A DNA stretch of 32,000 nt from Pirellula staleyi DSM 6068 (GCA_000025185.1 CP001848.1:5040001-5072000); one strand, 5' to 3'. Shown: positions 4,172 to 25,881, counted from the first letter of the stretch. Notes: generated by a model from the letters alone, not told the origin. Translations and numbers: made by a program.

Positions 4172-5842
4172 ATGCGGATGTTTGGGGTGAAATCGTTTCG
4201 CGCAGCTGAACTGTTTTTGACCTTAGCTATCGTGCTACCGGCGCTGCTGATTTCAGCCGGTTGTCGCGATCGCCTTGCTCCGGGACTGGCCGAGGCACCA
4301 CCCGACCCCAATGCCTACAAAAACCGCAAAATCCTCAAGCCGAAGGTCGAACAGCCGGTCGACGTTTCCGAGGAAACAGCGCTCATCGAAAAGGCCTACG
4401 AATCGTCGCGCACCGCGCGCCGCAACTTCGGATCGCAAGAGTCGGGTGGTGTTCGACTCGCCACCACCGCCATCGAATCGAATCTCGATATCGCCCCCAC
4501 GCTTGTCATTTGGCTCTTTGACGCATCACCAGCGAGCCAAAAGATGGCAATCGAATCAGTCTCGGCGGCCAAGGCTTATTACACCTCTCCCACGACGAAA
4601 TCGAAACTCGATGATCCCGAGCAGCCGCTGCTGACGGTGGTGGGACGATTCGCTGAATCGCTCGAACTGCTAACGCCGGAGCCAACTTCCACCGAAGCGG
4701 ATATCTCGGCGGCGCTCGACAAAGTGCTCGATGCTCCGCCGATCGAAGCAGCCACCACGCAGCCACTCACAGCTGCTCAGTCTGCTGCAGAAAAGTTTCT
4801 TTCCACGCGCACCGAGGGTGGCCGCCAAGTGCTGCTGGTGATGGTCACTGCGCAAGCTGGTAGCGACGATGCCAAAGCAGAAACACTAGCGCCGATGCTG
4901 CAGCGAATGGCGATACCTCTGTACGTGATTGGCACGGCGGCTCCTTGGGGTCAGCCAGGACCTCCGGCCAATGTCGGCGCACGCCCCAATGAACGTGAAG
5001 CTGCAAAACCGACGCGCTACGGTCCGGAGTCACGCTACAGCGAACGGGTGCTCGTCCACATGAGCGCCACGGGGAACTATCGCACCAACGAGAATCTAGC
5101 CATCGAATCGGGCTTCGGACCGTTTGGTCTTGAGTGGGTCGCACGAGCCAGTGGTGGGATGTTCTTTGCCTCACGACCTTTGACCAGCAGCTTTTCGAAC
5201 TTTCGTCACGGCAATACCTACACGGTTTGGCCCACCGGAAGTGAATGGCGTTTTGAGCCTAACGTCGCCAGCAAGTATGCCCCCGATTATGTCTCCGAAG
5301 CCGAATATCAAAAGCGACTCGGTAATGCAGCGGCTCGCGCGCTACATGAAGCTGCGAAACTTGGCGACTTGGTGATCGACGAATACCCGGCTCTCAACTT
5401 CGAACGGAAGTCGGAAGCGCAGATGGCTCGGTCACTCAGCACCGCGCAGCAGTATGCCGCTCGGAACGTTCCACCCGTCGATCGCCGCTACGATCTGCTG
5501 CTCGCAGGAGAATCGGGACGCGATTCGCTTCCGACCGCGCGCTGGCAAGTGCAGTACGATATCGCGATGGGACAAGTCCTCGCGGCGAAGGTGCGACTCG
5601 ATGGCTACAACGCTATGATCGCCGCGCTCAAGCGTGGCAAAACGCCGACCGATCCCGAGAGCAAACTGTGGCTGCTTGAACAATCCACCAACATCGAAAC
5701 GGGAAGCGCGATGCAGAAAATGGCGGAAAAGGCAACGATGTACCTCACCCGCGTGAAGCAAGAGCATCCCGGCACACCTTGGGCCAAACTCGCCGAAGAA
5801 GAGCTTCTATCACCACTGGGCTGGAGTTGGAAAGAAGGCTAG
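4172..5842 (+). CDS. Secreted/lipoprotein-like hypothetical protein with a vWA-like alpha/beta region
   Basis: 556 aa. The N-terminus FLTLAIVLPALLISAGC looks like a signal peptide with a lipobox-like Cys. An alternating beta-strand pattern (TLVIWLFDASPAS, LLTVVGRF, QVLLVMVTAQ, IPLYVIG) resembles a vWA fold with a degenerate MIDAS. No enzymatic motif recognised. Confidence 0.6.
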   Translation: MRMFGVKSFRAAELFLTLAIVLPALLISAGCRDRLAPGLAEAPPDPNAYKNRKILKPKVEQPVDVSEETALIEKAYESSRTARRNFGSQESGGVRLATTAIESNLDIAPTLVIWLFDASPASQKMAIESVSAAKAYYTSPTTKSKLDDPEQPLLTVVGRFAESLELLTPEPTSTEADISAALDKVLDAPPIEAATTQPLTAAQSAAEKFLSTRTEGGRQVLLVMVTAQAGSDDAKAETLAPMLQRMAIPLYVIGTAAPWGQPGPPANVGARPNEREAAKPTRYGPESRYSERVLVHMSATGNYRTNENLAIESGFGPFGLEWVARASGGMFFASRPLTSSFSNFRHGNTYTVWPTGSEWRFEPNVASKYAPDYVSEAEYQKRLGNAAARALHEAAKLGDLVIDEYPALNFERKSEAQMARSLSTAQQYAARNVPPVDRRYDLLLAGESGRDSLPTARWQVQYDIAMGQVLAAKVRLDGYNAMIAALKRGKTPTDPESKLWLLEQSTNIETGSAMQKMAEKATMYLTRVKQEHPGTPWAKLAEEELLSPLGWSWKEG

Positions 5843-6941: not shown

Positions 6942-8267
6942 CTAGATTCCAAACTGATTGAGCACCAACTCGAACAGATCGGTGTCGGCGATGGGCCGTT
7001 CGACGAACACACCCTTTTGACTCGACAGTAGGACGGTCCGCTGAGCGTCGCTTACTGCTGGTGCGCCGTGCGATCCGCCAATCAGCGTGGCATCGAGCGG
7101 AATGCACTTGTTCGCGCGATCGAAGTGCAGCTCTACCGGGTCGTAGCCCGGTTTACGATGGATGTCGACGGTGCGGGCAAACTTCGGTGCCTTCGCGTCG
7201 TCGAGCCAGTAGTAGTAGGCCTGCCAGCTTTCAGCCGTGCTGATCAAAATCACTTCGCCGCTGCGCTCGTGATCCATGCCATATTTTTTACGTTCATCGC
7301 CCGCCAGAACTTCGGCAATCCCTGGCTTTCCTTTGAAAAGATCGACCACTTTCGCGATGTTCGCGCTATCGGCATCTTTCACAAACACGTGGCTGAACTG
7401 ATGGTCGACGAGCGCCCAAGCAGGCGTTTCGCCATACGCAATCACTTCGCCCGTGCCATCGTCGGTAACGCTTAGCAGGCCTGCTTCTCGGAGGAGACGA
7501 TTGGGGTAGGTGACGTGGTTGACCGGCGTGATGGCGTATTCGCCAGCCACGAGCCACAGTAGTCGATGGCCTTGATAAGCGGCTGCTGCATCGGTGGCGA
7601 GCTTGCCAATCACGTTATCGAGTTCGATCACCGCCTGCAGAGCGGCTGGCGAATCGGGACCAAGTTTTTGCGCGGCGTAGTCGAGCTGCGGCAGATAGAT
7701 ATGAAAGAAACGGGGCTTATACTTCTCCATCGCCAGCGCCGCGGAGTTGGCGATCCATGCGGTCGAGGCAATGCCAGCCATCGGCCCCCAGAAGTTCATC
7801 AGCGGAAAATGTCCGAGAGCGTCGCGCAGATCGCCGTAGTATTCCTTCGGCTTGGTGTAGCACCAGAGCGATTCGCTGCCGTCGGGATTATGCACTGGCG
7901 CGGGCATGCAGATGTAGTCGGCGCCACAGCCTTTGGTCAGCATCGGAAACCAAGTGGCCGACGTCAGCTGCGGATCGTGCTTGTGCAGCACGTCCCAAAT
8001 TTGCGGCTGCTGAATCTTGTCGTTCCAAGCGGTCCACATTTCCACTTTCGCGGTGTCACGCCAAAAGAAACCGTTGCCGATCACACCGGTTTCGCTCGGC
8101 AATTTGCCGGTGAGCATGGCCGTTTGCGAGGTCCAAGTGACCGCGGGAAAACTGGGGACCAGCGTCGCGATGTCGCCACCCGACGTGAGTGCTCGAAGCT
8201 GCGGCATCGAGGCCAGATCCTGCCTGCGCAAGCCCGGAATCGACAAATAAATCACGCAGTCGCTCAT
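6942..8267 (-). CDS. Alkaline-phosphatase-superfamily nucleotide pyrophosphatase/phosphodiesterase-like protein (EboF-like, tentative)
   Basis: The N-terminal block YLSIPGLRRQDL...LVPSFPAVTWTSQTAMLTGKLPSETGVIGNGFFW is typical of type I phosphodiesterase/AP-family proteins, with a nucleophile Thr in PAVT. ATG at 8267 is preferred; TTG at 8273 is the alternative. Confidence 0.72.
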   Translation of the reverse strand: MSDCVIYLSIPGLRRQDLASMPQLRALTSGGDIATLVPSFPAVTWTSQTAMLTGKLPSETGVIGNGFFWRDTAKVEMWTAWNDKIQQPQIWDVLHKHDPQLTSATWFPMLTKGCGADYICMPAPVHNPDGSESLWCYTKPKEYYGDLRDALGHFPLMNFWGPMAGIASTAWIANSAALAMEKYKPRFFHIYLPQLDYAAQKLGPDSPAALQAVIELDNVIGKLATDAAAAYQGHRLLWLVAGEYAITPVNHVTYPNRLLREAGLLSVTDDGTGEVIAYGETPAWALVDHQFSHVFVKDADSANIAKVVDLFKGKPGIAEVLAGDERKKYGMDHERSGEVILISTAESWQAYYYWLDDAKAPKFARTVDIHRKPGYDPVELHFDRANKCIPLDATLIGGSHGAPAVSDAQRTVLLSSQKGVFVERPIADTDLFELVLNQFGI

Positions 8268-8351
8268 CAGCAAAAACTCCGATTCGAAGAGGCAGTGGCG
8301 CGTCCGCTGCGAGCGCGCTACGACAAACTAACCAGGACCGAAAGTGCCACG

Positions 8352-9197
8352 CTACTTGCCCAGAGCGCGATTGAACAGAGGGGCGAGGAACTCCCACGCT
8401 TTTCGGGCGGCCTGCGGAGCCTCGTGACTATGCCGGCTCAGCTCGACATGCACGCCTCCCTGATAGCCGCACCGCGCGAGCGCCGCAATGATCGGCGGGA
8501 ACTCCATTTCTCCTTCACCGAACATCAAATGCTCGTGAACATCGGCGCGCATATCCTCCAAATGCACATTCACCATTCGGTCGGACCAGCGTGCCACATA
8601 GTCGGCGATCGGCAACTCTCCTTGGCAGTAAAGATGGCCGATGTCGAGCGTCAGCTTGAGATGCGTGTGATCGATCCACTGCAACAGTCGCGTGAAGCGA
8701 CTCATCGTGTCGATCACCATGCCCGGCTCGGGTTCAAACGCAATCCAAACGCCTGCCGCAGCGGCGCGATCGAGCACAGGAGCCAGCGACTCGGCAATAC
8801 GCTCGAGCAGCTGCTCTTCCGTAGCTTGATCGCGAGCAATACCCGACCAGAGTGACACCGACGAACTTCCAAGAGCACGCGCGGCATCGATTGCGCGGTA
8901 GTAGAAATCGATGCGACGCGACCGAGCTTCCGGCGCACTGCTGACGAGTGTCGGCTCGTGCTTCATTTTCGGATCGAGCAAAAATCGAGCGCCGGTTTCG
9001 ACAACGCTCGTCAGATTTCGCTCGTCGAGTAGCGCTCGAGTGCGGCGCAGTTCGTCAGGAAAGCGTACGTCAAACGGATTCAGCCGACCGTGATCGAGGG
9101 TAATCGCGATGCTCTGGTAGCCAAGGTTCGCAAGTTCTGCGATCGCATCGAGCGGATCGTGATGCGCCCAGCCGTTGGTGTTGTAGCCCAGTAGCAT
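8352..9197 (-). CDS. Xylose-isomerase-like TIM-barrel protein (sugar phosphate isomerase/epimerase family; EboE-like, tentative)
   Basis: 281 aa with an ATG start. It begins MLLGYNTNGWAHH and carries metal-ligand-type blocks WIAFEPEPG, LTLDIGHL and NVHLED, typical of AP-endonuclease-2/xylose-isomerase TIM barrels. Confidence 0.8.
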   Translation of the reverse strand: MLLGYNTNGWAHHDPLDAIAELANLGYQSIAITLDHGRLNPFDVRFPDELRRTRALLDERNLTSVVETGARFLLDPKMKHEPTLVSSAPEARSRRIDFYYRAIDAARALGSSSVSLWSGIARDQATEEQLLERIAESLAPVLDRAAAAGVWIAFEPEPGMVIDTMSRFTRLLQWIDHTHLKLTLDIGHLYCQGELPIADYVARWSDRMVNVHLEDMRADVHEHLMFGEGEMEFPPIIAALARCGYQGGVHVELSRHSHEAPQAARKAWEFLAPLFNRALGK

Positions 9198-9230
9198 GAT
9201 TGACGAAGCAGGGGGCGAATGGTGGTGCGA

Positions 9231-10226
9231 TTAGGTGGAGTAGATGAACCGCTGCAGCGCAAGGGTCGGGAGCATCAAAGCCACGATCGCCAGCGAATAT
9301 CCCGGGGTCAGCACGGTGAGAACGACGGCAGCGTGAAACATGATGAGAGACAGAATAGCCTGCTTGATCACTGGTTGCACGGTGCTCGGCTGTGGATCGG
9401 CAATCGCGCGGACACCTCGCAGCAAAATGCTGACACCCAGGCACGACATCAGCAGCATGAACATTTGCGCTGGTATCCGTTGACCAGGCAGAGCAAGGGC
9501 CTGATACACAACCCCTGCTACTCCGGAGAGCATCAGTAGCAGTCCGATGGTTAGTTGCCAGCGCGAGCTCTCCACTGCCTCTTGTCTCGAAAACCAAGTG
9601 ACGCCAGCGATATAAAGTCCGTAAGCGATCGCCAGCAGCAGCCACACCGCTGGGTATCCCATCACCACCGGCTCGCTTACGGCCGGCGCAAGGCTCATCC
9701 CCAGCAAAATGTTGAGCGTGCGACAGGCACCCATGGCAAAGGGGCCGGCGAAGGTGTGCTTCAGCCAGGCGTTGTAAAGCAGAATCATCCCGGCCAAGAG
9801 GGTCGCAACACCACCGCTGTGGAGCATCGAGATCGTCTCAGCTTGATAGGCAATGCCAACCACCCATGCCAGCAAGCATCCGAGCACCAGCAGACCGGCA
9901 CCAAATCGTTTGGCAAAGTCGAGCGAAACAGCGCCGCTGGGGAGTGGTCGCGTAGGACGCTCGACCCGATCGATTTCGATATCAAACACGTCGTTCAGCA
10001 CCATCCCTGCGGTGTAAAGCATCGCGCTGGCTATGGCGAGCGCGATGAGCCCCGGCAAGGGCTGAGCATCGCCCCGAGCGAGGAAAAAACCGAGCAGGAT
10101 ATCGGCTACTGACGTGAAGACATTCGACAGCCGACAGAGTTTCAGCAGTGGCAACAAGCTTCCACTGGGGCCGCGATCGGCCGCTTCAGGCAACGATTCG
10201 ATCGTGGGTGGAAGCTGACTGTTCAC
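9231..10226 (-). CDS. UbiA-superfamily integral-membrane prenyltransferase (EboC-like, tentative)
   Basis: 331 aa, polytopic and hydrophobic. The first Asp-rich motif is NDVFDIEIDRVERPTRPLPSG. GTG start at 10226. It lies 33 nt upstream of the TIM-barrel gene. Confidence 0.8.
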   Translation of the reverse strand: MNSQLPPTIESLPEAADRGPSGSLLPLLKLCRLSNVFTSVADILLGFFLARGDAQPLPGLIALAIASAMLYTAGMVLNDVFDIEIDRVERPTRPLPSGAVSLDFAKRFGAGLLVLGCLLAWVVGIAYQAETISMLHSGGVATLLAGMILLYNAWLKHTFAGPFAMGACRTLNILLGMSLAPAVSEPVVMGYPAVWLLLAIAYGLYIAGVTWFSRQEAVESSRWQLTIGLLLMLSGVAGVVYQALALPGQRIPAQMFMLLMSCLGVSILLRGVRAIADPQPSTVQPVIKQAILSLIMFHAAVVLTVLTPGYSLAIVALMLPTLALQRFIYST

Positions 10227-10295
10227 TCGCTCACTCGCAGTTCGCCGGCGGGCACTAGAATTCGCATCAGGGGAGGGGAGACTGACGGCGATATT

Positions 10296-11285
10296 CTACC
10301 GAGCGCCCGACTCTTGCGCGAGAGGTACGAGCCGTTTTGCGGCGAGCATTCGCTCGTCGGGAAGTTTGACATTCCAGGCGAGTCCCACGAGTTCCATGGC
10401 CCGAATGATCACCCAGCTGGTATCGAACTGCCACCACCGCAAACCGTGACGAGCCGACGTTGGAAACGCATGGTGATTGTTGTGCCACCCTTCGCCAAAC
10501 GCAAGAAAACCACAGAAAACGTTGTTGCGGGATTCGTCTCCCGAGTCGTATTCGCGCTGGCCAAAGACGTGGCAAATCGAGTTGATCGACCAGGTGACGT
10601 GGTGTGTCACGAAGATCCGTACAAACCCGCCCCACAGTAGCGCCAGCAGCGCCCCTTCGACCGTTCCTGTTGCCAAATAGCCGATCAGGGTTGGCAGCCC
10701 CAAGCTAACGACGACCCACAGATAATAGAGCCGGTCGACCGCCATCAGCCAGCGATCGGCCACAAGATCAGGAACGTAGCGCTGCACGCGCGGCGAGGTC
10801 CAGTAGCCTGTAAAAAGCCAGCCGGTGTGGGCATACCAAAGCCCTTGCAGCATCGCTCCGAGCCCATTGCCATGCAGATGAGGCGAATGGGGGTCGCCAT
10901 GCTGGTCGCTCAGTTCGTGATGCCGCCGATGCACAGCGCACCACGTGACTGGAGAGCCTTCGATCGACAAGCATCCCATCGCTGTCCAAAACATCCTGAC
11001 CCAGGGATAGGTTTCGAACGACCGGTGCGTCAGCATCCGGTGAAAGCCGATGGTGATCCCCGCGCCGGTGATCGCCCAGCCGCTCAAAAAGAGCCCCAGG
11101 TTAAGCCAGCCGACCATGCCGTATTGCCACAGTGTGGCCATCGCGACGAAGAGTGAAATGAACGGGAGAAAGACAATGCCCAGCATCACGATTTTGTGCG
11201 TGAGGGGCGCTTCGGGAAATTCGACCTGGAGCTGTCGTTCGCCGGTCGACGAAGGGTTGGTGGAGGGTGTACGAACTTCTGCCAT
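10296..11285 (-). CDS. Membrane acyl-CoA/acyl-lipid delta-9-type fatty acid desaturase
   Basis: Three histidine boxes are present: HRMLTHRSF, HRRHHELSDQHGDPHSP and GEGWHNNHHAFP. The ATG at 11285 gives a 329-aa protein of normal family size. The track ORF extends to a GTG at 11453. Confidence 0.85.
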   Translation of the reverse strand: MAEVRTPSTNPSSTGERQLQVEFPEAPLTHKIVMLGIVFLPFISLFVAMATLWQYGMVGWLNLGLFLSGWAITGAGITIGFHRMLTHRSFETYPWVRMFWTAMGCLSIEGSPVTWCAVHRRHHELSDQHGDPHSPHLHGNGLGAMLQGLWYAHTGWLFTGYWTSPRVQRYVPDLVADRWLMAVDRLYYLWVVVSLGLPTLIGYLATGTVEGALLALLWGGFVRIFVTHHVTWSINSICHVFGQREYDSGDESRNNVFCGFLAFGEGWHNNHHAFPTSARHGLRWWQFDTSWVIIRAMELVGLAWNVKLPDERMLAAKRLVPLAQESGAR

Positions 11286-11556
11286 ACGTGGCGTAAGGTC
11301 CCCATGATGTCGTGCCTCGCGGCGGCTCGACGTCTTGGTGGACTTGCTTCCTGTGAGTCTTCGAGACACTACACACCCTTGTTCAAACAGAGGAAACGAA
11401 CGGGCCGCCGAATCCGAAGGCGAGCCGAGTCGAGTGCGTGAGAGGTTGCTCACGCAAATTGGCGTCTACTGTGAGACTACCCGAAAACGAAAAAGTCTGC
11501 GCACCGTTTGACACAACTTTTGCGCGATCGAGCAAAATGAGGAGTGGTGGGCGCAG

Positions 11557-11591
11557 AAAAAAACCACGCGACCTGTTACCGGGTGGCGTGG
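11557..11591 (-). terminator. Rho-independent terminator downstream of the RRM gene
   Basis: On the minus strand the sequence reads ccacgccaccc-ggtaaca-ggtcgcgtgg followed by ttttttt. This is a 10-bp GC-rich stem with one mismatch plus a 7-U tract, about 160 nt after the stop at 11750. Confidence 0.6.
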
Positions 11592-11749: not shown

Positions 11750-12220
11750 TTAGTAGCGTCCGCCACCATCGCGACCACCACGGCCACCGCCGCCGCCGTA
11801 ACCACCTCCACCGCCACCACCGTATCCGCCTCCACCGCCACCACCATATCCGCCGCCGCCGCCGTAGCCGCCGCCATCGCGACCACCACCGCCGCCGCCG
11901 TAACCGCCACGACCACCGCCGTAACCGCCACGTCCGCCGCCGCCACCACCGCCGCCGCCAGCTGGACGGGGAGCGCGTTCGCGAGCTTCATTCACCACCA
12001 GGGGACGACCGTTGCAGTTGGTGCCATTGAGGCCATTCACAGCAGGTTCGCAATCGGCGTCGTTCGCCATCTGGACGAAACCAAAGCCGCGCGACCGGCC
12101 GGTTTCCCGGTCCATGATCACTTCGGCAGCTGCCACATCACCAAACGGCTTGAAGAGAGCTTCAAGGTCCGATGAGGAGTACGTCCAGGGGAGGTTCCCC
12201 ACATAGATCCGCTTCGTCAT
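11750..12220 (-). CDS. RRM (RNP-1) RNA-binding protein with a C-terminal Gly/Tyr/Arg-rich tail
   Basis: ATG at 12220. RNP2 is IYVGNL and RNP1 is RGFGFVQM. An RRM of about 85 aa is followed by a 69-aa tail, GGGGGGGGGRGGYGGGRGGYGGGGGGRDGGGYGGGGGYGGGGGGGYGGGGGGGYGGGGGRGGRDGGGRY. Confidence 0.92.
   Translation of the reverse strand: MTKRIYVGNLPWTYSSSDLEALFKPFGDVAAAEVIMDRETGRSRGFGFVQMANDADCEPAVNGLNGTNCNGRPLVVNEARERAPRPAGGGGGGGGGRGGYGGGRGGYGGGGGGRDGGGYGGGGGYGGGGGGGYGGGGGGGYGGGGGRGGRDGGGRY
11753..11959 (-). repeat. Low-complexity (GGN)n/(GGN-TAY) coding repeat encoding the Gly/Tyr/Arg tail
   Basis: About 207 nt are almost entirely ccgcc/ccacc/gtaacc units on the plus strand. This creates the spurious Ala/Val-rich ORF 11710..11991 in another frame. 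Confidence 0.9.
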
Positions 12221-12263
12221 TCGACAAGTCCTTAGAACAGAATCCAAAATCCCAGCAAGCTAG

Positions 12264-12295
12264 ATTGCCAGCCAAACCAATTGCCAGCCAAACCA
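12264..12295 (-). repeat. Perfect tandem duplication of a 16-nt unit in the RRM gene leader
   Basis: The plus strand reads attgccagccaaacca twice (12264-12279 and 12280-12295). On the mRNA strand this is uugguuuggcuggcaa x2, 44-75 nt upstream of the ATG. Confidence 0.9.
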
Positions 12296-12553
12296 AACCC
12301 AAACCGCAAACAGCTACCGAACCCAAAACCGCCAGAACGAGGCAGTCTTGTGCTGGAGCGCGGCAATCGCGGCACGTCGTTTCCTGGGACCCTATCGCTT
12401 GACGAATGGAACAAAACCCAATCAGCAAACTGGCAAGGGACTTTCAGCCGATGCGGACCACATGTACCAACCACTCGCGAAGCCAACTCCAAAGCGAGTC
12501 GGCAACTGTTCTTGATGGGAAATATACCCGGCCCGTTGTAGGGAAGAAAGAGC

Positions 12554-12585
12554 AGTTGACGGGAAATCGAGATTCACCGTCAACT
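12554..12585 (-). terminator. Candidate terminator hairpin downstream of the DUF1559 gene 12815..13729
   Basis: A 9-bp stem (agttgacgg / ccgtcaact) with a 14-nt loop. The minus strand continues gctctttcttccc, which is pyrimidine-rich but not a clean U-tract. Confidence 0.3.
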
Positions 12586-12814
12586 TCGAAAATGCCGCTG
12601 AAACACGGAGTTCTCGAGGTCCGTGCGCGTGCTCCATCACCCAGCAAATCAGGGTTTCGCTGCTCGCCCTACCAAGCCTCAAAGCTCGCCCAGTTTGGCA
12701 ATTTGGGGAGGGACACCACATCGCATCAGCACTCGTCGACGTGACGTATGGTTCGGCACCAAGCATGATCTCAAAAACGCTTGAACATGCTTCTTCGCCC
12801 CCTCTGCCAGCAAC

Positions 12815-14704: not shown

Positions 14705-16174
14705 TTACTCGGGAATGTAGTTCAGCGTGTAGTACGCCTTGTTATGCAGCAGAGGCTTACCTTCTGCCGACTTCACACCGGCCATGGTGAATTCATGGAC
14801 GTGCCCTTCGACGATCTTGTCGATGTAGAGCCGAGCGCTGAGGCCATCAGCGGCAACTTCAACCTTGGTGATCGTCGGTTTCGTGTGATCGACTTCAGGG
14901 CTGCCATAAGCGGCCTGATAAATGTAGCAGTAGGTGCTTAGGTCATAGGACTTCGGATCACCAGCGGAGGCGGGATCGACCTTTTCGGTGAAGGTGAATT
15001 CGAAGCCATCTTTCTTGGCATGCATTTCGTGCACTTCAAACGGAACCTTGCCCGACCACATGATCCGATCGAGTGAGTGCGGCTGTGTCCCCCGCGACCC
15101 CCAACCACGATTGGTGCCGCCGACAAACAGCGCCCCTTCTTTGGTGAGGAGCAGCGAGAGCGAGCCTGAACCAATGCCACTGCGGAACGGGAAGCAAGCA
15201 CCTTGGTAGTGTCCCTTCACCTGTTCCATGTAGACCCGCATCACGGTGCTATGGGTCTGATCGCCCACGAAGAGTTGATTTTGGAACGGACCAAACTTGC
15301 CACCGGTGGTATCGCACATGATGCCCGAAGCCGACTGCCCCATTTTGTTGTAGGGAAAGTAAACCGCTGGAGGTTCAAGCTGGGGGATCTTTTTGGCTTC
15401 TACCATCATGCGACTACCCGACTGAGGTTCCGTCGGCTTTTCGCCAATCGCGCCACCAGCTACATCGAACCAGCGGAAGCCGCCGGGATGACCTTGGAAC
15501 GAGCCTGGCTTCAAATGTTTGATGCTGCAGGTTCCGTTCCAGGGACCTTGATTGTCGGTATAGAACATGTCCCCTGCGGCATTCATTCCTACACCGCCCG
15601 GCGAACGAAGTCCGCTGCAGGTCGGAATCACTTTTCCTTCGGGGGTGATGCGGAGGCACCAACCGCGATACTTGCTCTCGCTGCTGAACGACCCGGTGAG
15701 GCAAAGCGTGACCCAGATGTTTCCGTCTTTGTCGAACTTCGACCCGAAGGCGTATTCGTGATAGTCGCCGTTGATGCCCCAGCCATCGCTGACGGTTTCG
15801 AACAGATCGCCACGACCGTCGCCATCTTCATCCTTGATACGCGTGACTTCGCAGCGCTGAGTGGCGTAGAGCCAACCATCTTTTTCGGCGATGCCGAGCA
15901 CTTCATGCAGCCCCGATGCAAACTTGGTGAACTCGGCGTTTTCGGGGTTTTTGACAAACGGTTTGTCGAGCAGAAAGATATCGCCGCGACGGGTCGAGAT
16001 GGCGAGCTTGCCATCGGGCATCATTTCGAGTCCACCTGCTTCCAAATTGACAAATTCCGAGAGTGGAAACGCCACCAACGGATAGTAAGTCTCTTCGGTC
16101 TCTTGAGCGGCGGCAGAGCCGCACAGCAGGAGCAGGGCAGAGAGGAGCGAGCCAGTGAGGAGCCGAATATTCAT
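14705..16174 (-). CDS. Secreted beta-propeller protein resembling PQQ-dependent/soluble sugar (sorbosone/glucose) dehydrogenases, with a C-terminal Ig-like domain
   Basis: The signal peptide is [25 protein letters not shown]. Repeated propeller-blade-like segments include [51 protein letters not shown] and [13 protein letters not shown]. Confidence 0.72.
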
Positions 16175-16247
16175 CGTGATTTCCCTAGGAAATTAGGGGT
16201 TTCGTACCAACATGAAACGCGAGGACGTGCACTGCAAATCGGCGTGA

Positions 16248-18983
16248 CTACCAGTCGTAGGTTTGCGTGATCTGCGCCTTACCATTCTCGATCACTACCG
16301 GAACAAGGAGTTCCGATTTGCCGCCACTTGATCGGATGACCGGCTTACCGGCCGACGTAATCTTGGTGGTCCACTTGTCGTCGATCAGGTAGGTACCACC
16401 TTCCTTCGCTTCGATCTTGCTGGCAACGATCGCGCGGTAATAGAGCCCTTCGACTGCTCCGGGCGCTTCGAGCGTGAATTGCCGCGAGAAGTAGACTGCG
16501 TCGCTATCAGCCACCGGATTCACATAATCGCTGATCACCACATCCCCCATCGCGTAACGGAATGTGGGCTTGCGAAGCTCTCCGAGGCGATAGCCCAGAA
16601 ATCGATAGCCAGCTTGCTCGGCCGATTCACCGGGCCAAGCAGTGTCGGCCGCAGCCAATTTGGCAAACGCGATTCCTTCGGGAAATTTGAGGACGTTGTC
16701 GCCTAGTGGTGGTTCGTAGCCGACGCCACGTCCCGTCCAGTGACGAGCCGCATCGATGAACGAACCTTGCCAAAACATGGCCATTCGAACGTTGTTGGCA
16801 TCAAACGCGAGGTTCAGTTTTTCGGCATAGCCGACACCAATGGCCCGCGAACCTGCACCTTCGATGAAGTTGCGATACATCACCGCTTCATCAAACGCGA
16901 TGAGTTCCATCTTGCCAGTCACCAGACCAATCGGCAGGGTTGCCTGGTCCCCATCGGTCAGGTAGGCGTAGATCGACATGATCTGCTTATCGCTGTTGCC
17001 TTCGAGGATACTCGGAAGCTGCGAAACGCCCCCCGGCCAAGCGGCTGGCATGCGAGTTCCGGGGCGGAACTCTTGGGGGTTCAGCAGATAGTTATGGAAC
17101 CATTCAGGACGTAGGCGTTTGGTCATGGTGGTCATGCTGAGAGCCTGAATGCCGGTCGCCTTTTTATCGGCGAAGGTGTGGCACTTCACGCACGAGTAGC
17201 CTTGCGAGCCAACCAGTCGACGGCCTGCTGCCTTCAGCTTTTTGTCGGCGAGGTCGACGTCGACCTTCGGTGCCGCCTTGGCTTTGGCGAGATCGACTTC
17301 AGCGAGTTGATCGATCAGGGTGCCGACGTTTTCCAAGCCGAAGCGTGGCATGCGGGTGAACATGTAGGGACGATCTTTGGCACCCTCAGCAAAAACGGTC
17401 TTCAGCCATTCAGGCTGCAGCTTGGCACCGACACCTGTGAGCGCTGGAGGGATCCGACCTTCGTCTCCCATTTCAGGCATGTCGGAGAGGAAGTGGGGAT
17501 TGCGAGCTTGTTCGATGCCGCCGATTTCACCACGTGCGTGGCAGGCGTAGCAATTGAAGCGGGCCATTTGGGCCGAAATCAGTTCTTCTTTCGGCTGCTC
17601 GGCAGCGGGCTGTTTTGCGGCTTTGATTGCCTCCACGAGGGAGGTTCGCTGCACTGCTCCGAGAGCGTAGTAAGGAGTTTTGCCACGCGATGATTCGAGG
17701 CAACCACCTTCTCCCTTGAGGGCCGAAAGAGCAGGTGCCGTGGCTTTGGCAGCGACAGCTTCACCACCAATTTTCAGCTGATGGCAGTTGGCGCATCCAA
17801 CCGAAGCAAAGAGCTCGCGACCTTTGGCAGCCAGTTCAGGCTTCACGACGAACTCAGCCGGCGTTTCGCTCCCTGCGGCTGGTTTGGGGGCAGGAATGGC
17901 GACGAAATCCGACAGCGATTGCTGAGGATGACCTTCGCGCTCGACGAGCACTTGCAGCTGTTCTTCACCAGCAGCTTCGAAATATTCGACGACAAACGGA
18001 ATCAGCCCCGCTTTAAGTTTCAGCGGCTTTCGTTTTTGGCTGAACGGATGAACGCCATCGTTATCGATCAGCACCTTGCCATCGATTGAGAGTCGCGAGC
18101 CGTCGTCGGAGCCGATCAGGAAGAGGTAGTTTCCGTCGGCAGGAATTTGGAGCAAACCATCGAAACGCAAGGCAAAGTTTTCCTTGGCCTTCACGACCGA
18201 GACATCGATTACCGAGGCATCGCCGGTTGATTTGGGAGTCAACTTCGAGAAGTCGGGGAGTTTGTCCCAGGTTCCTTCGTAGTAGGCAAATTGCAGCCCC
18301 GATGCGAGTGGAAGATCGTTCAGCAGATACGAGGCGACATCGCGGGCATCGGTGCCATTAAGAAGATGGGGCATGCGGCCACCGGGGCGAACTTTTAGTG
18401 GATCGCTGAGGAATTCGGTGAGACCGGCGAGGGTGTACTTGCGCGAAGGAGTGCCGAGTGGAATCGACGTGGGGAGCGCGACTGCTCCTTCTTTGCGTGA
18501 ATCGTGGCAGGCAAGACAGCCGACTTCGTGATAGATCTTTTCGCCCCGCATGGCAGCCTGGCGAAGCGGGGAGGTCTCTTGCGTGGTACCGGTGGTGGCG
18601 AGGAAGTGCACAATCGCTTCCGCAGCAGCGGCCCGTTCGGCGTCGGGAAGAGTGTGCAGAACGCCGGGCATGGTGGTTCCTGGCTTCACCGTTTGCGGAT
18701 CGGCGAGGAACTTCATGAGATACTGCATTTTCACGCGATTGCCGACGGAATCGAGAATCGGCGCGGGTTTCTTTTGGACAGCGGAAGCAAGCGCGGCATC
18801 AGCTGCGTGACAGCTGGTGCAATTGAGTTCGCCCAGCAGCAGCTGACCACCACGGAGAGCTTGATCTCCCGACGCATGAAAACGTTCGTAGCCGATCACG
18901 CGCGGCGGCGCCTCTTGGGCCACAACCAGCGGGGCCCAAGCGAGCATCATGCTCAAAAACAAGAACGAGAAACCACGTCGCAT
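16248..18983 (-). CDS. Secreted multi-heme c-type cytochrome (5 CxxCH) with an inserted PA14 domain
   Basis: The signal peptide is MRRGFSFLFLSMMLAWAPLVVAQE. Heme motifs are CTSCH (aa 55), CLACH (156), CANCH (397), CYACH (478) and CVKCH (598). Met-ligand-type motifs are GTTMPG, GGRMPH, FTRMPRF and GTRMPAA. The PA14-like segment GLQFAYYEGTWDKLPDF...ADGNYLFLIGSDDGSRLSIDGKVLIDNDG spans about aa 228-345 (about 17949-18302). Confidence 0.87.
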   Translation of the reverse strand: MRRGFSFLFLSMMLAWAPLVVAQEAPPRVIGYERFHASGDQALRGGQLLLGELNCTSCHAADAALASAVQKKPAPILDSVGNRVKMQYLMKFLADPQTVKPGTTMPGVLHTLPDAERAAAAEAIVHFLATTGTTQETSPLRQAAMRGEKIYHEVGCLACHDSRKEGAVALPTSIPLGTPSRKYTLAGLTEFLSDPLKVRPGGRMPHLLNGTDARDVASYLLNDLPLASGLQFAYYEGTWDKLPDFSKLTPKSTGDASVIDVSVVKAKENFALRFDGLLQIPADGNYLFLIGSDDGSRLSIDGKVLIDNDGVHPFSQKRKPLKLKAGLIPFVVEYFEAAGEEQLQVLVEREGHPQQSLSDFVAIPAPKPAAGSETPAEFVVKPELAAKGRELFASVGCANCHQLKIGGEAVAAKATAPALSALKGEGGCLESSRGKTPYYALGAVQRTSLVEAIKAAKQPAAEQPKEELISAQMARFNCYACHARGEIGGIEQARNPHFLSDMPEMGDEGRIPPALTGVGAKLQPEWLKTVFAEGAKDRPYMFTRMPRFGLENVGTLIDQLAEVDLAKAKAAPKVDVDLADKKLKAAGRRLVGSQGYSCVKCHTFADKKATGIQALSMTTMTKRLRPEWFHNYLLNPQEFRPGTRMPAAWPGGVSQLPSILEGNSDKQIMSIYAYLTDGDQATLPIGLVTGKMELIAFDEAVMYRNFIEGAGSRAIGVGYAEKLNLAFDANNVRMAMFWQGSFIDAARHWTGRGVGYEPPLGDNVLKFPEGIAFAKLAAADTAWPGESAEQAGYRFLGYRLGELRKPTFRYAMGDVVISDYVNPVADSDAVYFSRQFTLEAPGAVEGLYYRAIVASKIEAKEGGTYLIDDKWTTKITSAGKPVIRSSGGKSELLVPVVIENGKAQITQTYDW

Positions 18984-19280: not shown

Positions 19281-20180
19281 CTAGCTGCTGGCGCTGCGAT
19301 AGCCGCGCAGTGAAAGCTGGAAAACCCATCGCGACACGGCGAGGCAGGCGAGGGTCGCAAAAATGGCAAAAATCGCCAGTGGCCAAACCTGTTCACCCGT
19401 GGGACTCACCGGCCGCGCAATGATCCGGGCTGGCACGTTCACCACCACCAGCACCGGCAAAATGTAGGTGAAACCCATCCGCAGGGGAGTGCCGAGTCGA
19501 CCTTCGTAGATCTCCATCGGATAGCGGGCAAAGTTGGTGATGTAGAACCAAAAATCGTAGAGCGATCGGTTCTGCCCGAGCCAAATGCTGGTCGCCGCCA
19601 GCGCGATCATCAGGCTGTACATCACCGCCACGCCGCACAGCACGTATAGCAAATAGAGGACGTACGAAGCTGGCGCAATCACTAGCGGACTGGTTTCGCG
19701 CGAGGTGAGTTGCCACAGGCTATAGCTGAGCAGCACCGTGCCGGCCGCAACGTTCGACAGACTCGACCAGTCGATCTTCCGCATCGAGATGAGAAACTGA
19801 GTATCAATCGGCTTGAGGAGTGCGAAATCGAGTCCACCTGTTCGAATCAGCTCACTCACCTCTTCGCAGTTGGGCATGAAGAACGTTTCGACAAGTCCGT
19901 TCACCAGCATGGTGGTAGCGAGAAAAGCGAAGAACTCGTACTTGCCCCAGCCAGTGTTGGGGCCGATCGAGGTGGTGTAGTTGAAAACGATCAGATAGAG
20001 ACCAACGTTCATGCCGGTCCAAGTGATGCTCGAAAAACACTCGATCAAAAAATTCATGCGAAACGTCATGTCGCGCACGAGGCTGTTGCTGGCGAATGTC
20101 AGCAGCACACTCAGGTAGCGCGGATGGACCGCATCGCTAGCGATGGCGGAGCGTTTCGAGTTATCGATCGGAGGATTCAT
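19281..20180 (-). CDS. ABC-2-family transporter permease (COG3694-like)
   Basis: The ATG at 20180 gives MNPPIDNSKR...; the diagnostic block is ELIRTGGLDFALLKPIDTQFL, and about 6 TM segments are visible. The track ORF start at 20357 would overlap the upstream gene by 140 nt. Confidence 0.8.
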   Translation of the reverse strand: MNPPIDNSKRSAIASDAVHPRYLSVLLTFASNSLVRDMTFRMNFLIECFSSITWTGMNVGLYLIVFNYTTSIGPNTGWGKYEFFAFLATTMLVNGLVETFFMPNCEEVSELIRTGGLDFALLKPIDTQFLISMRKIDWSSLSNVAAGTVLLSYSLWQLTSRETSPLVIAPASYVLYLLYVLCGVAVMYSLMIALAATSIWLGQNRSLYDFWFYITNFARYPMEIYEGRLGTPLRMGFTYILPVLVVVNVPARIIARPVSPTGEQVWPLAIFAIFATLACLAVSRWVFQLSLRGYRSASS

Positions 20181-20217: not shown

Positions 20218-21033
20218 CTAACCACCGAAAGCCGAGTAGCGACGAACCCCACGCGAATAGAGAAGTCGCGAGAGGAACATGAACAGCAGCATCCACAAGA
20301 ACTCGAGCAACAACCCTTCCCACAGGTCGCGGCCTTGCACCTTGCCAAGCAGCACATTCGCCGGGAAATAGGCGAGGTACTGGAGCGGCATTAAGTCGAC
20401 AATCGTTCGCCACGGCTCACCGAGCATGTCGAGCGGGAACATATGTCCTGACAAGAAGAAATTGAAGAGCATGTAGATAAACAAAAGCGAACTGACCTCG
20501 AGCCACCAAAAACCGACGAGTCCCATGCAGGCTTCGAGATAGAATCCCAGCAAAAAACAGAGGACCAAAGCGAGAATGCCAGCGGCCAGAGTGCCCGGGT
20601 CGGGCCAGCCGTCGAAATAGCTGCGGCAAAGGAAAAAGACGAGGGCGAACGGGCCTGTGGCGATGGCAAAGTAGGCCAATTTATGAGCCACGCGGCCCAA
20701 GAGCAAAAAGGCGAGCAGATCGACCGGCTGGAGTAAGAACTTTTTGACTTCGCCACTCCGAATCTGGGCGGCGATGCCACTGGAGAGTCCCGGCATGCTC
20801 GAAAAAGCGCGCGAGACCATCGTCAGCAGGTAATAGGCGACGATTTGCTCGTAGCTGTAACCCGCGAGATCGCCACCTCCTCGGGCCAAGAACACAGCAT
20901 TCCACAGGAAGATTTGCGTGACGATCGGCAGAAAGCGCATCAGCGTGCCGAGCGCAAAATCGCCACGATAGACGAGCCGCTCCTGCAATGCGATTCGCAG
21001 GATGATCCACCACGTTATTGCCTGAGCAAACAA
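20218..21033 (-). CDS. ABC-2-family transporter permease (COG4587-like)
   Basis: 271 aa with a TTG start. The N-terminus has LQERLVYRGDF, the diagnostic block is QIRSGEVKKFLLQPVD, and multiple TM segments are visible. Confidence 0.8.
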   Translation of the reverse strand: MFAQAITWWIILRIALQERLVYRGDFALGTLMRFLPIVTQIFLWNAVFLARGGGDLAGYSYEQIVAYYLLTMVSRAFSSMPGLSSGIAAQIRSGEVKKFLLQPVDLLAFLLLGRVAHKLAYFAIATGPFALVFFLCRSYFDGWPDPGTLAAGILALVLCFLLGFYLEACMGLVGFWWLEVSSLLFIYMLFNFFLSGHMFPLDMLGEPWRTIVDLMPLQYLAYFPANVLLGKVQGRDLWEGLLLEFLWMLLFMFLSRLLYSRGVRRYSAFGG

Positions 21034-23893: not shown

Positions 23894-25018
23894 TTAGTGT
23901 TTTCCTTTGCCGAGTAGCTCTTTGATTTCGACAGCCCGGTGCTCTTTCACCGAGAGATAGCAGGCGTCGACCAGGGCCATGGTCTTCAGGTTATCCAGCC
24001 CGCTGATGGTCGGCTGTTCGCCATTCTCGAGAGCGATCAACAGTTCGGCCATCGTTCCGCCAAAAGCGTCGGGGAACCAAACTTCTTTCCAGCGTGGAGA
24101 AAGCCAGTAGTTCCCTTGCTCGGTGGTTGTAAAGTCGAGTGTGCTGGGCGTTGGATGAGGATAGTCGGGCCAGCCGATCGTCCCCTTGGCAAGTCCCTTA
24201 AGCCCCTCGACGCGCCACTTGATACCAATGTCGGCCTGAGCCCCTTCGAGTGCCGGACCGGTCCAAACGTCGTCGCACGCCATGGCGCGGAGTCCGTTTT
24301 CGTACTCCAAGATGTAGAGGCAGATGCCGTCGGAATGCTCGAACTTCTTCGCCGTGCGAGGATCGGGTCTGACACTGGCAAATACGCGCACTGGATCGCC
24401 AAACAGATAGCGAAACGTATCGAGATGGTGAATCGACATGATGCGAAGCGTCACCCAACCTTGGCGCTGTTGCCACGGCATCCAGTGGGGAATGGCCCGC
24501 ATATCAATCGTCGCGAGCACCGCCTCGCCCAGCAGGTCGCGCTCGAGCAAACATTTGAGCGCGCGGATTGAGTGATCGAACCGCATGTTTTGATTCACGG
24601 CCAGTGTGACACCTGCTCGTTTGCAGAGTGCAACAATCTCGCGAGCCTGCTGCAAATTCGCGCCGAGTGGCTTTTGCGCAAGGATGCCGCGCACATGCTT
24701 TTTGTAAGCCAGAACGTTGCGAATCACTTCGATTTGCGTGTCGGGTGGCACTGCGATATCGACCACCTCGACCTTGCCACTGGCGAGCATTTCTTGATAG
24801 GTATCAAACGCCTCGAGTCCATGTTGCTCGGCAATGCGCTGCGCATGAGCAGGAGTGCGCGACGCAATCGCTACCGGATTGAAACCTGCTTTGCGATAGG
24901 CCACGAGATGACAATCGGCCATCACAAAACCACTACCAATGCAGCCGATCGGCGCCGATCGATCGCGAGGCATCGGGGGTAAATAATCGAGTTCGAGATT
25001 CAGCGACTTCTTGGCCAT
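23894..25018 (-). CDS. Gfo/Idh/MocA-family NAD(P)-dependent oxidoreductase
   Basis: ATG at 25018 (MAKKSLNL...). The Rossmann motif is IGCIGSGFV, and AQKPLG occupies the EKP-motif position. The alpha/beta C-terminal domain is typical of the family. Confidence 0.85.
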
Positions 25019-25059
25019 CGCAATCACTTTCAGAGAGGCAATCAGCGGCGCGTGCTCAG

Positions 25060-25881
25060 TTACTCGGCAAGCCCCGTGCGAGACATCAGCAAGCGTGTCG
25101 CTGCATACGCTTCGGTGACCCACTCGACAATTTTGTCGGGCTCGGGGGAGTACTCGAGTTCAATCGACATCGCGCCGTCGATCTGCAACGCGGCAAGCTC
25201 TTGCAAGTAAGGCTCAAAAGGAACGACACCACGTCCGGGTGGCAGATCGCCATGCTTTTTCCCATCGCAATCGCTGATGTGCACATGGGCCGCAAGCGAG
25301 CGAAGTTTTCGCAACTCTTCGGGCTGCACGCCTGCCAACAGCAAGTGCGAAATATCGATATTCGCCTTGATTTGCGGGTGATTGACGTCGCGCAGCAATT
25401 GCACCATGCGATCGACACTGTTGACCAGCGACAAGGGAAACGGTTCAAGTTCGATGGCGATCTCGACACCGAGCCCACCTGCATAATCCCCCAAACGTTT
25501 GCAGTTATCGACTGCGGTTTGCCACTGCTCGGCAGGTGCGATCACTTCCTGGTTCCAGACATACTCGCCAAGTACCAGCAGCACATTCTTGGCGTGATAC
25601 TCGTAGGCTAGATCGAGATACTCTTGCACTCGATCGACATGAAACCGCTGCACGCTCGGATTGAAATCCACAAGTCCGAGCGCCACACAGCAGAGCGAAA
25701 CAATCGGCAGATCGATTTCCGCACAGACCTTGGGAATAAGCCGGCGCTCGCGGATGTCGATATCGAGCGGATCGACAAACAGATCGACGTGATCGAAGCC
25801 AATTTCTTTAGTCTTACGAAGTCCGTATTCGGTAGGCTGACCAGCCTGAACCCAAGCCGAATTGATGAGTCCTAGTTTCAT
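25060..25881 (-). CDS. Xylose-isomerase-like TIM-barrel protein (sugar phosphate isomerase/epimerase family)
   Basis: 273 aa. It begins [10 protein letters not shown] and carries the blocks [16 protein letters not shown] and HVHISDCDG. Confidence 0.85.

Follow-up and report, generated by a model that had tools for sequence, protein, structure and literature searches.

Gene Organization of the Locus

A 32,000-nucleotide stretch of the Pirellula staleyi DSM 6068 genome (GCA_000025185.1 CP001848.1:5040001-5072000; hereafter the window, with positions counted from its first letter) carries on its minus strand four consecutive genes, which encode a fatty-acid desaturase, a UbiA-superfamily prenyltransferase, a short TIM barrel protein and an alkaline-phosphatase-superfamily (AP) hydrolase. 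The prenyltransferase and the hydrolase resemble EboC and EboF, products of the ebo genes, a long-standing orphan cluster that has only recently been connected with thallusin, which acts on green seaweeds as a morphogen at picomolar levels. The features of the locus are the following.

6942-8267, minus strand: EboF-type alkaline-phosphatase-superfamily hydrolase (441 amino acids from ATG 8267; longest open reading frame to 8273; PF01663, 158 bits)
8352-9197, minus strand: short xylose-isomerase-like TIM barrel, called X (281 amino acids; PF01261, 141 bits)
9231-10226, minus strand: EboC-type UbiA-superfamily prenyltransferase of a Pirellulales subfamily (PF01040; EboC NF035940 is the top model)
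10296-11369, minus strand (preferred extent; longest open reading frame 10296-11453): PF00487 desaturase (Pfam, 79.8 bits)
11557-11591, minus strand: credible intrinsic terminator of the upstream RRM gene, the upper edge of the transcription unit (hairpin followed by U7)

The matches of the four open reading frames (ORFs) to PF00487, PF01040, PF01261 and PF01663 are each well over the Pfam gathering score. The ORF calls bear out a preliminary description of the locus, made from the DNA sequence, as four same-strand genes separated by 69, 33 and 84 nt, the last gap being 78 nt if the AP gene starts at TTG 8273. The hairpin at 11557-11591, which that description regarded as isolating the four genes from the upstream gene, holds up as well: together with its U7 tract it folds at -19 kcal/mol (z = -2.7) and none of 200 shuffled sequences folds equally well, so that termination of the RRM gene at this site is credible. 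Folding of the 69-, 33- and 84-nt internal gaps revealed no terminator-like structure in any of them. The first gene had been called a delta-9 desaturase, and the assignment agrees with its PF00487 domain, with three His boxes (HRMLTH, HRRHH and HNNHH, corresponding to HRxxxH, HRxHH and HNxHH) and with the name stearoyl-CoA (delta-9) desaturase carried by close homologues; the product is accordingly annotated as a delta-9 acyl-CoA/acyl-lipid desaturase, with the regiospecificity predicted. The boundary of 11285 given for this gene needs revision. Since the alignment with homologues begins at residue 28 of the 385-residue ORF and the orthologue of the nearest relative, at the locus L001, has 357 residues, the start is probably GTG 11369, 84 nt beyond ATG 11285; GTG 11453 is the other alternative. 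A tblastn search of the 32-kb window with EboA, EboB, EboD, EboE, TatD and inositol-phosphate synthase (MIPS) gave no match at E <= 1e-3, in agreement with the earlier statement that eboA, eboB and eboD are missing from it.

The identical four-gene order is found at the loci L001, L007 and L013, and because of this recurrence the order is taken to be inherited rather than a chance run of genes. At its lower end the prenyltransferase-X-hydrolase triad is convergent with an asparaginase gene. A sigma-70 promoter and terminator scan stayed at the level of shuffled sequence (2 versus 1.4 and 8 versus 6.8, respectively), and the internal 'terminators' that it proposed were dismissed, being located within coding sequence. 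Over the whole window no Rfam family reached its gathering score, and no riboswitch or leader was found. A 429-residue ORF at 7566-8855 on the plus strand, antisense to the AP and TIM barrel genes, was rejected as a shadow ORF of GC-rich coding DNA.

The EboC-Type Prenyltransferase and the EboF-Type Hydrolase

Planctomycete ebo genes were described as unclustered by Yurchenko et al. (2016; Open Biol 6:160249, PMC5133447). Table S2 of that study gives the arrangement in Blastopirellula marina as 'ba//CXF//E', with eboD absent, X standing for a non-ebo gene, WP_002651987 listed as EboC and WP_002651989 as EboF. A homologue search from the protein of a Blastopirellula metagenome-assembled genome led to the B. 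marina protein, identified by exact look-up as WP_002651987.1, and its locus (L089) reads UbiA-PF01261-PF01663, the latter two genes encoding WP_002651988.1 and WP_002651989.1. The window UbiA is 41% identical over its full length to WP_002651987, the window TIM barrel 54% to WP_002651988 and the window AP 64% to WP_002651989, and the gene order is the same; the window triad is therefore the 'C-X-F' block of the 2016 table. Judged by these identities, the triad is orthologous to B. marina EboC, its adjacent TIM barrel and EboF. Orientation as well as order is shared with B. marina, where eboD is absent and the other ebo genes lie elsewhere. The B. marina locus differs in having no desaturase or RRM gene upstream, an opposite-strand DUF6655 gene taking that place, and a HEAT-repeat gene downstream. 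The C-X-F layout is thus already known, having been recorded for B. marina in 2016, and the system has recently been explained.

EboC (NF035940) is the top NCBIfam model for the window UbiA, matching over the full length at 193 bits, followed by the SCO3242 family at 138 bits; glycerol-ether prenyltransferase models reach 44-72 bits. It is also the top NCBIfam model for each of nine other Pirellulales UbiA proteins tested, with 170-202 bits. The first Asp-rich motif, NDxxDxxxD, is present. In a PDB sequence search the closest solved structure is the archaeal DGGGP synthase 6m31 (E 1.8e-15), which has the same UbiA fold and first Asp-rich motif, the match covering only the N-terminal 100 residues, a third of the protein. 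In the planctomycete Stieleria maiorica the validated genes are Mal15_01440 (eboC) and Mal15_03990 (eboF) (10.64898/2026.05.21.724671). Translation of the Stieleria primers for eboC, eboE and eboF in six frames gave peptides of 8-14 residues, too short for their scores to discriminate; one primer-derived peptide, DVFDLEKDKAERKM, matches the family pattern NDVFDxExDxxER, a pattern that does not separate families.

Aligned over its full length, the window AP shares 35% identity with the canonical EboF of Aureibacter (E 1e-91), and it is 35% identical to the AP of the Bacillus ebo cluster (E 2.5e-100). NCBIfam holds no curated EboF model, and membership was judged by identity and motifs. An alignment of 29 sequences from four phyla has FPxVT, FWGP, LDYxxQ, DHQ, IHxKPG / DPxE and GSHG as invariant elements, and in this alignment the window protein retains intact the AP-superfamily-type motifs of the family. 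A PDB sequence search with it gave no matches. At residues ~8-16 of the window AP (YLSIPGL), the EboF alignment has Ser/Pro in Pirellulales and Asn/Val in Aureibacter, and the EboF-family members of Bacillus and Haloferax carry an Asp two residues earlier; the site is presumably the position of the first metal-binding Asp in nucleotide pyrophosphatases ('ISIDGLR'-type motif).

The TIM Barrel X

EboE is expected to be a TIM barrel of ~380-400 residues, as against the 281 of X. The NCBIfam EboE model (NF035939) gives X 15.6 bits against a cut-off of 250, and a blastp comparison with Aureibacter EboE (E = 0.19) is confined to the EPEP motif. X resembles generic sugar-phosphate epimerases and IolE in NCBIfam, and its PDB matches (UlaE, MJ1311 and IolE) indicate the general enzyme class only. 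By these family matches X is a sugar or cyclitol isomerase, epimerase or dehydratase type, not EboE. The preliminary description had seen contiguous C, E and F types and had proposed placing the three proteins against the Ebo families. The C and F parts stand, with EboC the best model for the UbiA (short of its cut-off, as discussed below), EboF supported by identity to the canonical protein, and both having B. marina orthologues, whereas the E part fails on the EboE model.

Outside the planctomycetes, the closest counterpart comes from Nonomuraea, in which a TIM barrel gene starting at the UbiA stop codon encodes a protein 45% identical to X (E 1.5e-62); the same cluster holds a separate, true EboE in addition to this X orthologue. 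The degree of identity places X in the same orthogroup as the TIM barrel linked to an eboD-less, MIPS-type cluster. The motifs EPEP, DxGH, HLED, HxH..GxG and VEL are common to X and the ebo-linked TIM barrels of Bacillus and Haloferax. By sequence comparison, then, X has stayed with eboC in two phyla as a conserved partner, although it was scored as a non-ebo insert in 2016.

Relationship to Known ebo Clusters

Reference ebo loci were obtained by searching an annotated plasmid collection with the window UbiA, and four were read. Aureibacter tunicatorum pAT1 carries a canonical eboABCDEF operon. A Bacillus cereus plasmid reads TIM-TatD-TIM-EboC-AP-inositol-3-phosphate synthase, Haloferax volcanii pHV3 has TatD-TIM-UbiA-TIM with a divergent AP-MIPS pair, and Nonomuraea gerenzanensis has Ino1-UbiA-TIM-EboA-EboB-EboE-EboF without eboD. 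With canonical operons (Aureibacter pAT1, Maribacter and Nostoc) the window shares the EboC type at 28% and the EboF type at 35% full-length identity, along with common motifs; the contiguous EboA, TatD-like EboB, sugar-phosphate cyclase EboD and 400-residue EboE of those operons have no counterpart in it. The eboD-less MIPS-type clusters (SCO3242-family Actinomycetota, Bacillus and Haloferax) are like the window in having UbiA followed directly by a short PF01261 TIM barrel, together with an AP-family gene product 35-42% identical to the window AP. They differ from it in having MIPS and TatD beside UbiA (in Nonomuraea also EboA and EboE), and they have neither an ABC-2 transporter nor a desaturase.

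Functional information comes from a May 2026 preprint (10.64898/2026.05.21.724671), according to which ebo genes determine the biosynthesis of the algal morphogen thallusin. Deletion of eboB, eboC, eboE or eboF in S. maiorica abolishes thallusin, and EboC from three phyla, a planctomycete included, farnesylates a 6,7,8-trihydroxyquinaldate ester (10.64898/2026.05.21.724671). In Actinomycetota, EboD is replaced by Ino1 and two 'isomerases/dehydratases' (10.64898/2026.05.21.724671). The Stieleria thallusin genes belong by name to the same gene families as those of the window and to the same order-level lineage; they are reported as dispersed, with eboA absent and EboD present in producers (10.64898/2026.05.21.724671). 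The window differs from that account in that eboC, X and eboF are contiguous, and many Pirellulales join them to an ABC-2 exporter.

The ebo pathway of the window lineage is probably of the eboD-less type. The idea of a D-less variant, put forward in the preliminary description, fits the occurrence of an X orthologue after EboC in an eboD-less MIPS-type cluster and the lack of eboD in B. marina. Two other statements in it need correction: the block is one piece of a system whose genes are spread around planctomycete genomes rather than a 'truncated' cluster, and, with thallusin now assigned to the ebo genes by the preprint, their product can no longer be called chemically undefined.

Gene Neighbourhoods of eboC in Pirellulales

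The UbiA-family alignment, scanned against one genome per species, found at least 348 relatives, and the best 80 of the 348 are all from Pirellulales. Window and reference proteins were mapped by tblastn on 83 non-duplicate Pirellulales loci, and the denominators below are the loci with enough flanking sequence. X lies directly downstream of UbiA at 31/70 loci and an AP gene is found downstream at 25/70; both are present at 13 of the 70, and 12 have AP but no X. A second TIM barrel lies directly upstream of UbiA at 21/63 loci and has 45% identity to the one encoded ahead of EboC in Bacillus. ABC-2 genes occur on the same strand within 3 kb upstream of UbiA at 22/63, as two PF06182 permeases mostly accompanied by an ATPase, which at other loci is of the DrrA (daunorubicin-resistance) type. 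Only 7 of the 55 loci with both flanks have a solitary UbiA. The fullest locus, L008, reads ATPase-permease-permease-TIM-UbiA-TIM-AP. In about a third of Pirellulales the ABC-2 transporter and eboC thus form one same-strand block, and in a neighbour-joining UbiA tree the ABC-linked loci are scattered over the whole family. At L068 (12931-13731), L080 (12928-13728) and L077 (9264-10064) an EboB-like TatD gene follows just after the AP gene, its product being 41-44% identical to Aureibacter EboB and the Bacillus TatD; since it adjoins an EboF-type gene, these loci read ABC-eboC-eboF-eboB. What is added here to the known C-X-F layout is that many Pirellulales partly cluster the ebo pathway and that the ABC-2 exporter is the commonest neighbour of eboC, more widespread than the desaturase.

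The window itself carries intact genes for the two permeases, on the same strand as eboC and 9 kb upstream of it.

19281-20180, minus strand: ABC-2 permease, candidate exporter subunit (PF06182 at 133.8 bits; start ATG 20180 placed from the onset of homology)
20218-21033, minus strand: second ABC-2 permease of the same transporter (PF06182 at 83 bits)

Their identity to UbiA-adjacent permeases elsewhere is 56-69% for 19281-20180 and 57-68% for 20218-21033. In other Pirellulales the orthologous permeases are preceded by a DrrA-like ATPase gene and directly followed by eboC.

The eboC block is often found beside ruvABC, cysS, ispF and polA, and because of these housekeeping neighbours it looks like a core locus passed on by vertical descent rather than a mobile cluster. 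Unbiased clustering of ORFs from the neighbourhoods gave no further conserved partner beyond the housekeeping synteny (ispF, cysS, ruvC, ruvA, polA and DUF1501); several top ORF clusters were discarded as antisense shadow ORFs typical of GC-rich DNA. At ~16 loci ispF, of the methylerythritol phosphate (MEP) pathway, lies with cysS and ruvC divergently upstream of the ABC-eboC block (at L002, 3604-4095, ~3.3 kb from UbiA). Although ispF feeds prenyl donors, its adjacency is probably housekeeping synteny.

The Desaturase and the RRM Gene

The gene upstream of the terminator is the following.

11750-12247, minus strand: glycine-rich RRM RNA-binding protein (PF00076; NF058537 at 99.3 bits)

A desaturase gene lies within 300 bp upstream of UbiA at 7/63 loci. 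Desaturase-UbiA adjacency was seen in the window and at L001, L007, L010, L013, L020, L031, L055 and L093, always with the RRM gene ahead, and these loci form one clade of the UbiA tree, except for the long window/L001 branch and L093, which is outside the tree. Inside the same clade, L030, L034, L037, L069 and L078 have the RRM gene next to UbiA without a desaturase. The order RRM-(desaturase)-UbiA occurs in the window, at L001, at 11 genome loci and at L093, and within that clade no other upstream neighbour of eboC is as constant as the RRM gene, whether the desaturase is present or not. At L031, L055 and L093 the desaturase-UbiA pair is retained and X and eboF are missing. Desaturase orthologues of 61-64% identity stand alone at L092, L094 and L095; the first of these belongs to the complete genome of Anatilimnocola NA78 and lies ~4 Mb away from the eboC-X pair of that genome. 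No desaturase is present in any of the non-planctomycete ebo clusters examined (Aureibacter, Bacillus, Haloferax and Nonomuraea).

The linkage of desaturase and eboC is therefore lineage-specific, confined to one Pirellulales clade, and the desaturase is probably an ordinary housekeeping delta-9 fatty-acid desaturase and not a conserved part of the ebo system. Transcription may read through from the desaturase into eboC, since the 69-nt gap contains no terminator, but there is no sign of a pathway common to the two. The lipid context envisaged in the preliminary description has not survived the survey, which removes the suggested tie to membrane-lipid desaturation. An RRM gene next to a desaturase gene brings to mind the cold-induced genes of cyanobacteria. 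Upstream of the RRM gene, whose product is rich in glycine and tyrosine, ~570 nt of DNA at 12248-12814 is non-coding. Farther upstream, genes for multihaem cytochrome c/PA14 and DUF7133 proteins (14705-18983, minus strand) are syntenic with RRM-desaturase-eboC in three genomes, the other two being those of L001 (1-3462) and L093 (1-4109); in the window they make up the 9-kb block between eboC and the ABC-2 permeases.

Proposed Function and Alternative Explanations

The segment 6942-10226 is likely, at a modest level of confidence, to be a Pirellulales eboC-X-eboF block, a fragment of a dispersed ebo pathway for a secreted, prenylated, cyclitol-derived metabolite of the thallusin type. By analogy with published homologues, a cyclitol would be made elsewhere in the genome and processed by TIM barrel isomerase/dehydratase steps, with X acting as isomerase or dehydratase on an inosose-type intermediate. 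The processed cyclitol and aspartate would give a hydroxylated quinoline carboxylate, onto which EboC would transfer a farnesyl group in the membrane, and at some step EboF would hydrolyse a phosphate ester or anhydride. The product would be a secreted meroterpenoid of the thallusin/saccharoquinoline class. Gene neighbourhoods suggest that export could proceed through the ABC-2 transporter with a DrrA-type ATPase.

Several observations weigh against this account. The window UbiA misses the EboC equivalog cut-off, with 193 against 250 bits, and is only 28-32% identical to the EboC or EboC-like proteins of Aureibacter, Bacillus and Haloferax. By tblastn, eboB, eboE, MIPS and eboD were not found in the window. 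Nor does the window hold a DrrA-like ATPase gene, a DUF1559 gene occupying the slot upstream of the permeases. The orthology of the tested Stieleria proteins to the subfamily of the window is assumed, and the functional data for ebo come from one preprint that is not peer-reviewed. Because the block sits among housekeeping genes, the ABC-eboC link could reflect synteny and not function. A link between desaturase and eboC is possible, since their adjacency survives the loss of X and eboF at two or three loci (L031, L055 and L093).

A different product is the theme of one alternative, in which the block, along with the ABC-2 transporter and the additional upstream TIM barrel, makes a prenylated cyclitol or cyclitol phosphate other than thallusin; a compound anchored in the membrane, which the ABC-2 system would flip outward, is one example. 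ABC-2 systems with DrrA-type ATPases commonly transport lipophilic molecules, which would suit such a compound, and the same may be said of an archaeal lipid enzyme, DGGGP synthase, being the closest solved structure. The prenyltransferases stand apart from the EboC equivalog at 170-202 bits in all members tested, and a block with a fixed place among housekeeping genes, present in no fewer than 348 species-level genomes, suggests core physiology more than it does a niche signal. A prenylated cyclitol was indeed proposed as the ebo product by Yurchenko et al. (2016; PMC5133447). On the other side, ebo core genes are genetically needed for thallusin in a Pirellulaceae strain, and a planctomycete EboC farnesylates hydroxyquinaldate. 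Unbiased ORF clustering found no lipid-synthesis gene conserved beside the block. Moreover, no lipid of this kind is known. Taken together, a product other than thallusin seems rather unlikely. Cooperation of all four genes, with acyl-chain desaturation and a D-less prenyl-cyclitol pathway jointly serving a membrane or carrier lipid, is improbable. The shared strand and the 69-nt gap without a terminator between desaturase and eboC speak for it, as does the retention of the desaturase-UbiA pair in the window, L001, seven species-level genomes and L093, in some of which X and eboF are gone. Yet the adjacency is limited to one clade and 7/63 loci, five loci of that clade (L030, L034, L037, L069 and L078) have RRM-UbiA without the desaturase, orthologous desaturases are unlinked in other Pirellulales and the ebo clusters examined in other phyla have none; the arrangement of the window, with the two permeases, the 9-kb block ending in RRM-desaturase and then UbiA, suggests that an older ABC-eboC unit was rearranged or received an insertion. 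It is more improbable still that X is an unrelated sugar-metabolism gene lying by chance between eboC and eboF, which would leave two ebo genes only. That X was labelled a non-ebo gene in 2016 (PMC5133447) and that planctomycetes have many PF01261 paralogues, another one lying at 25060-25881 in the window, would agree with chance. Against it, a member of the same orthogroup (45% identity) directly follows an EboC-like gene in another phylum, in Nonomuraea, X follows UbiA at 31 of the 70 Pirellulales loci, and in Bacillus and Haloferax EboC has related short TIM barrels beside it.

A more far-reaching and tentative proposal, whose chances we would put somewhat below even, is that the Pirellulales had an ancestral operon with the order DrrA-type ATPase-two ABC-2 permeases-upstream TIM-eboC-X-eboF(-eboB). 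If this were true, a dedicated exporter of the ebo product would have been identified, the two short TIM barrels and inositol-phosphate synthase would constitute a bypass replacing EboD, and the published picture of planctomycete ebo genes as merely scattered would tell part of the story. In the window, an insertion of 9 kb with the cold-type RRM gene and the desaturase would then have come between exporter and eboC, making its arrangement a derived one. X, the partial clustering and the ABC-2 exporter each offer a concrete deletion target in tractable planctomycetes.

Other Features of the Window

Beyond the permeases, the minus strand carries a second PF01261 TIM barrel gene (25060-25881), IolO/epimerase-like, and a gene for a GFO/IDH/MocA oxidoreductase (23894-25123) whose top model is inositol 2-dehydrogenase IolG at 80.7 bits, below the cut-off. 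The pair would be candidate cyclitol enzymes, but this TIM barrel matches the ebo-linked ones at only 24% identity, and planctomycetes often have pairs of this sort. The window also encodes DUF1559/N-methyl proteins and PSCyt-type cytochromes. A 556-residue protein encoded at 4172-5842 on the plus strand has an N-terminal signal- or lipoprotein-like sequence and no Pfam match, and a 555-residue counterpart occupies the same position at L001.

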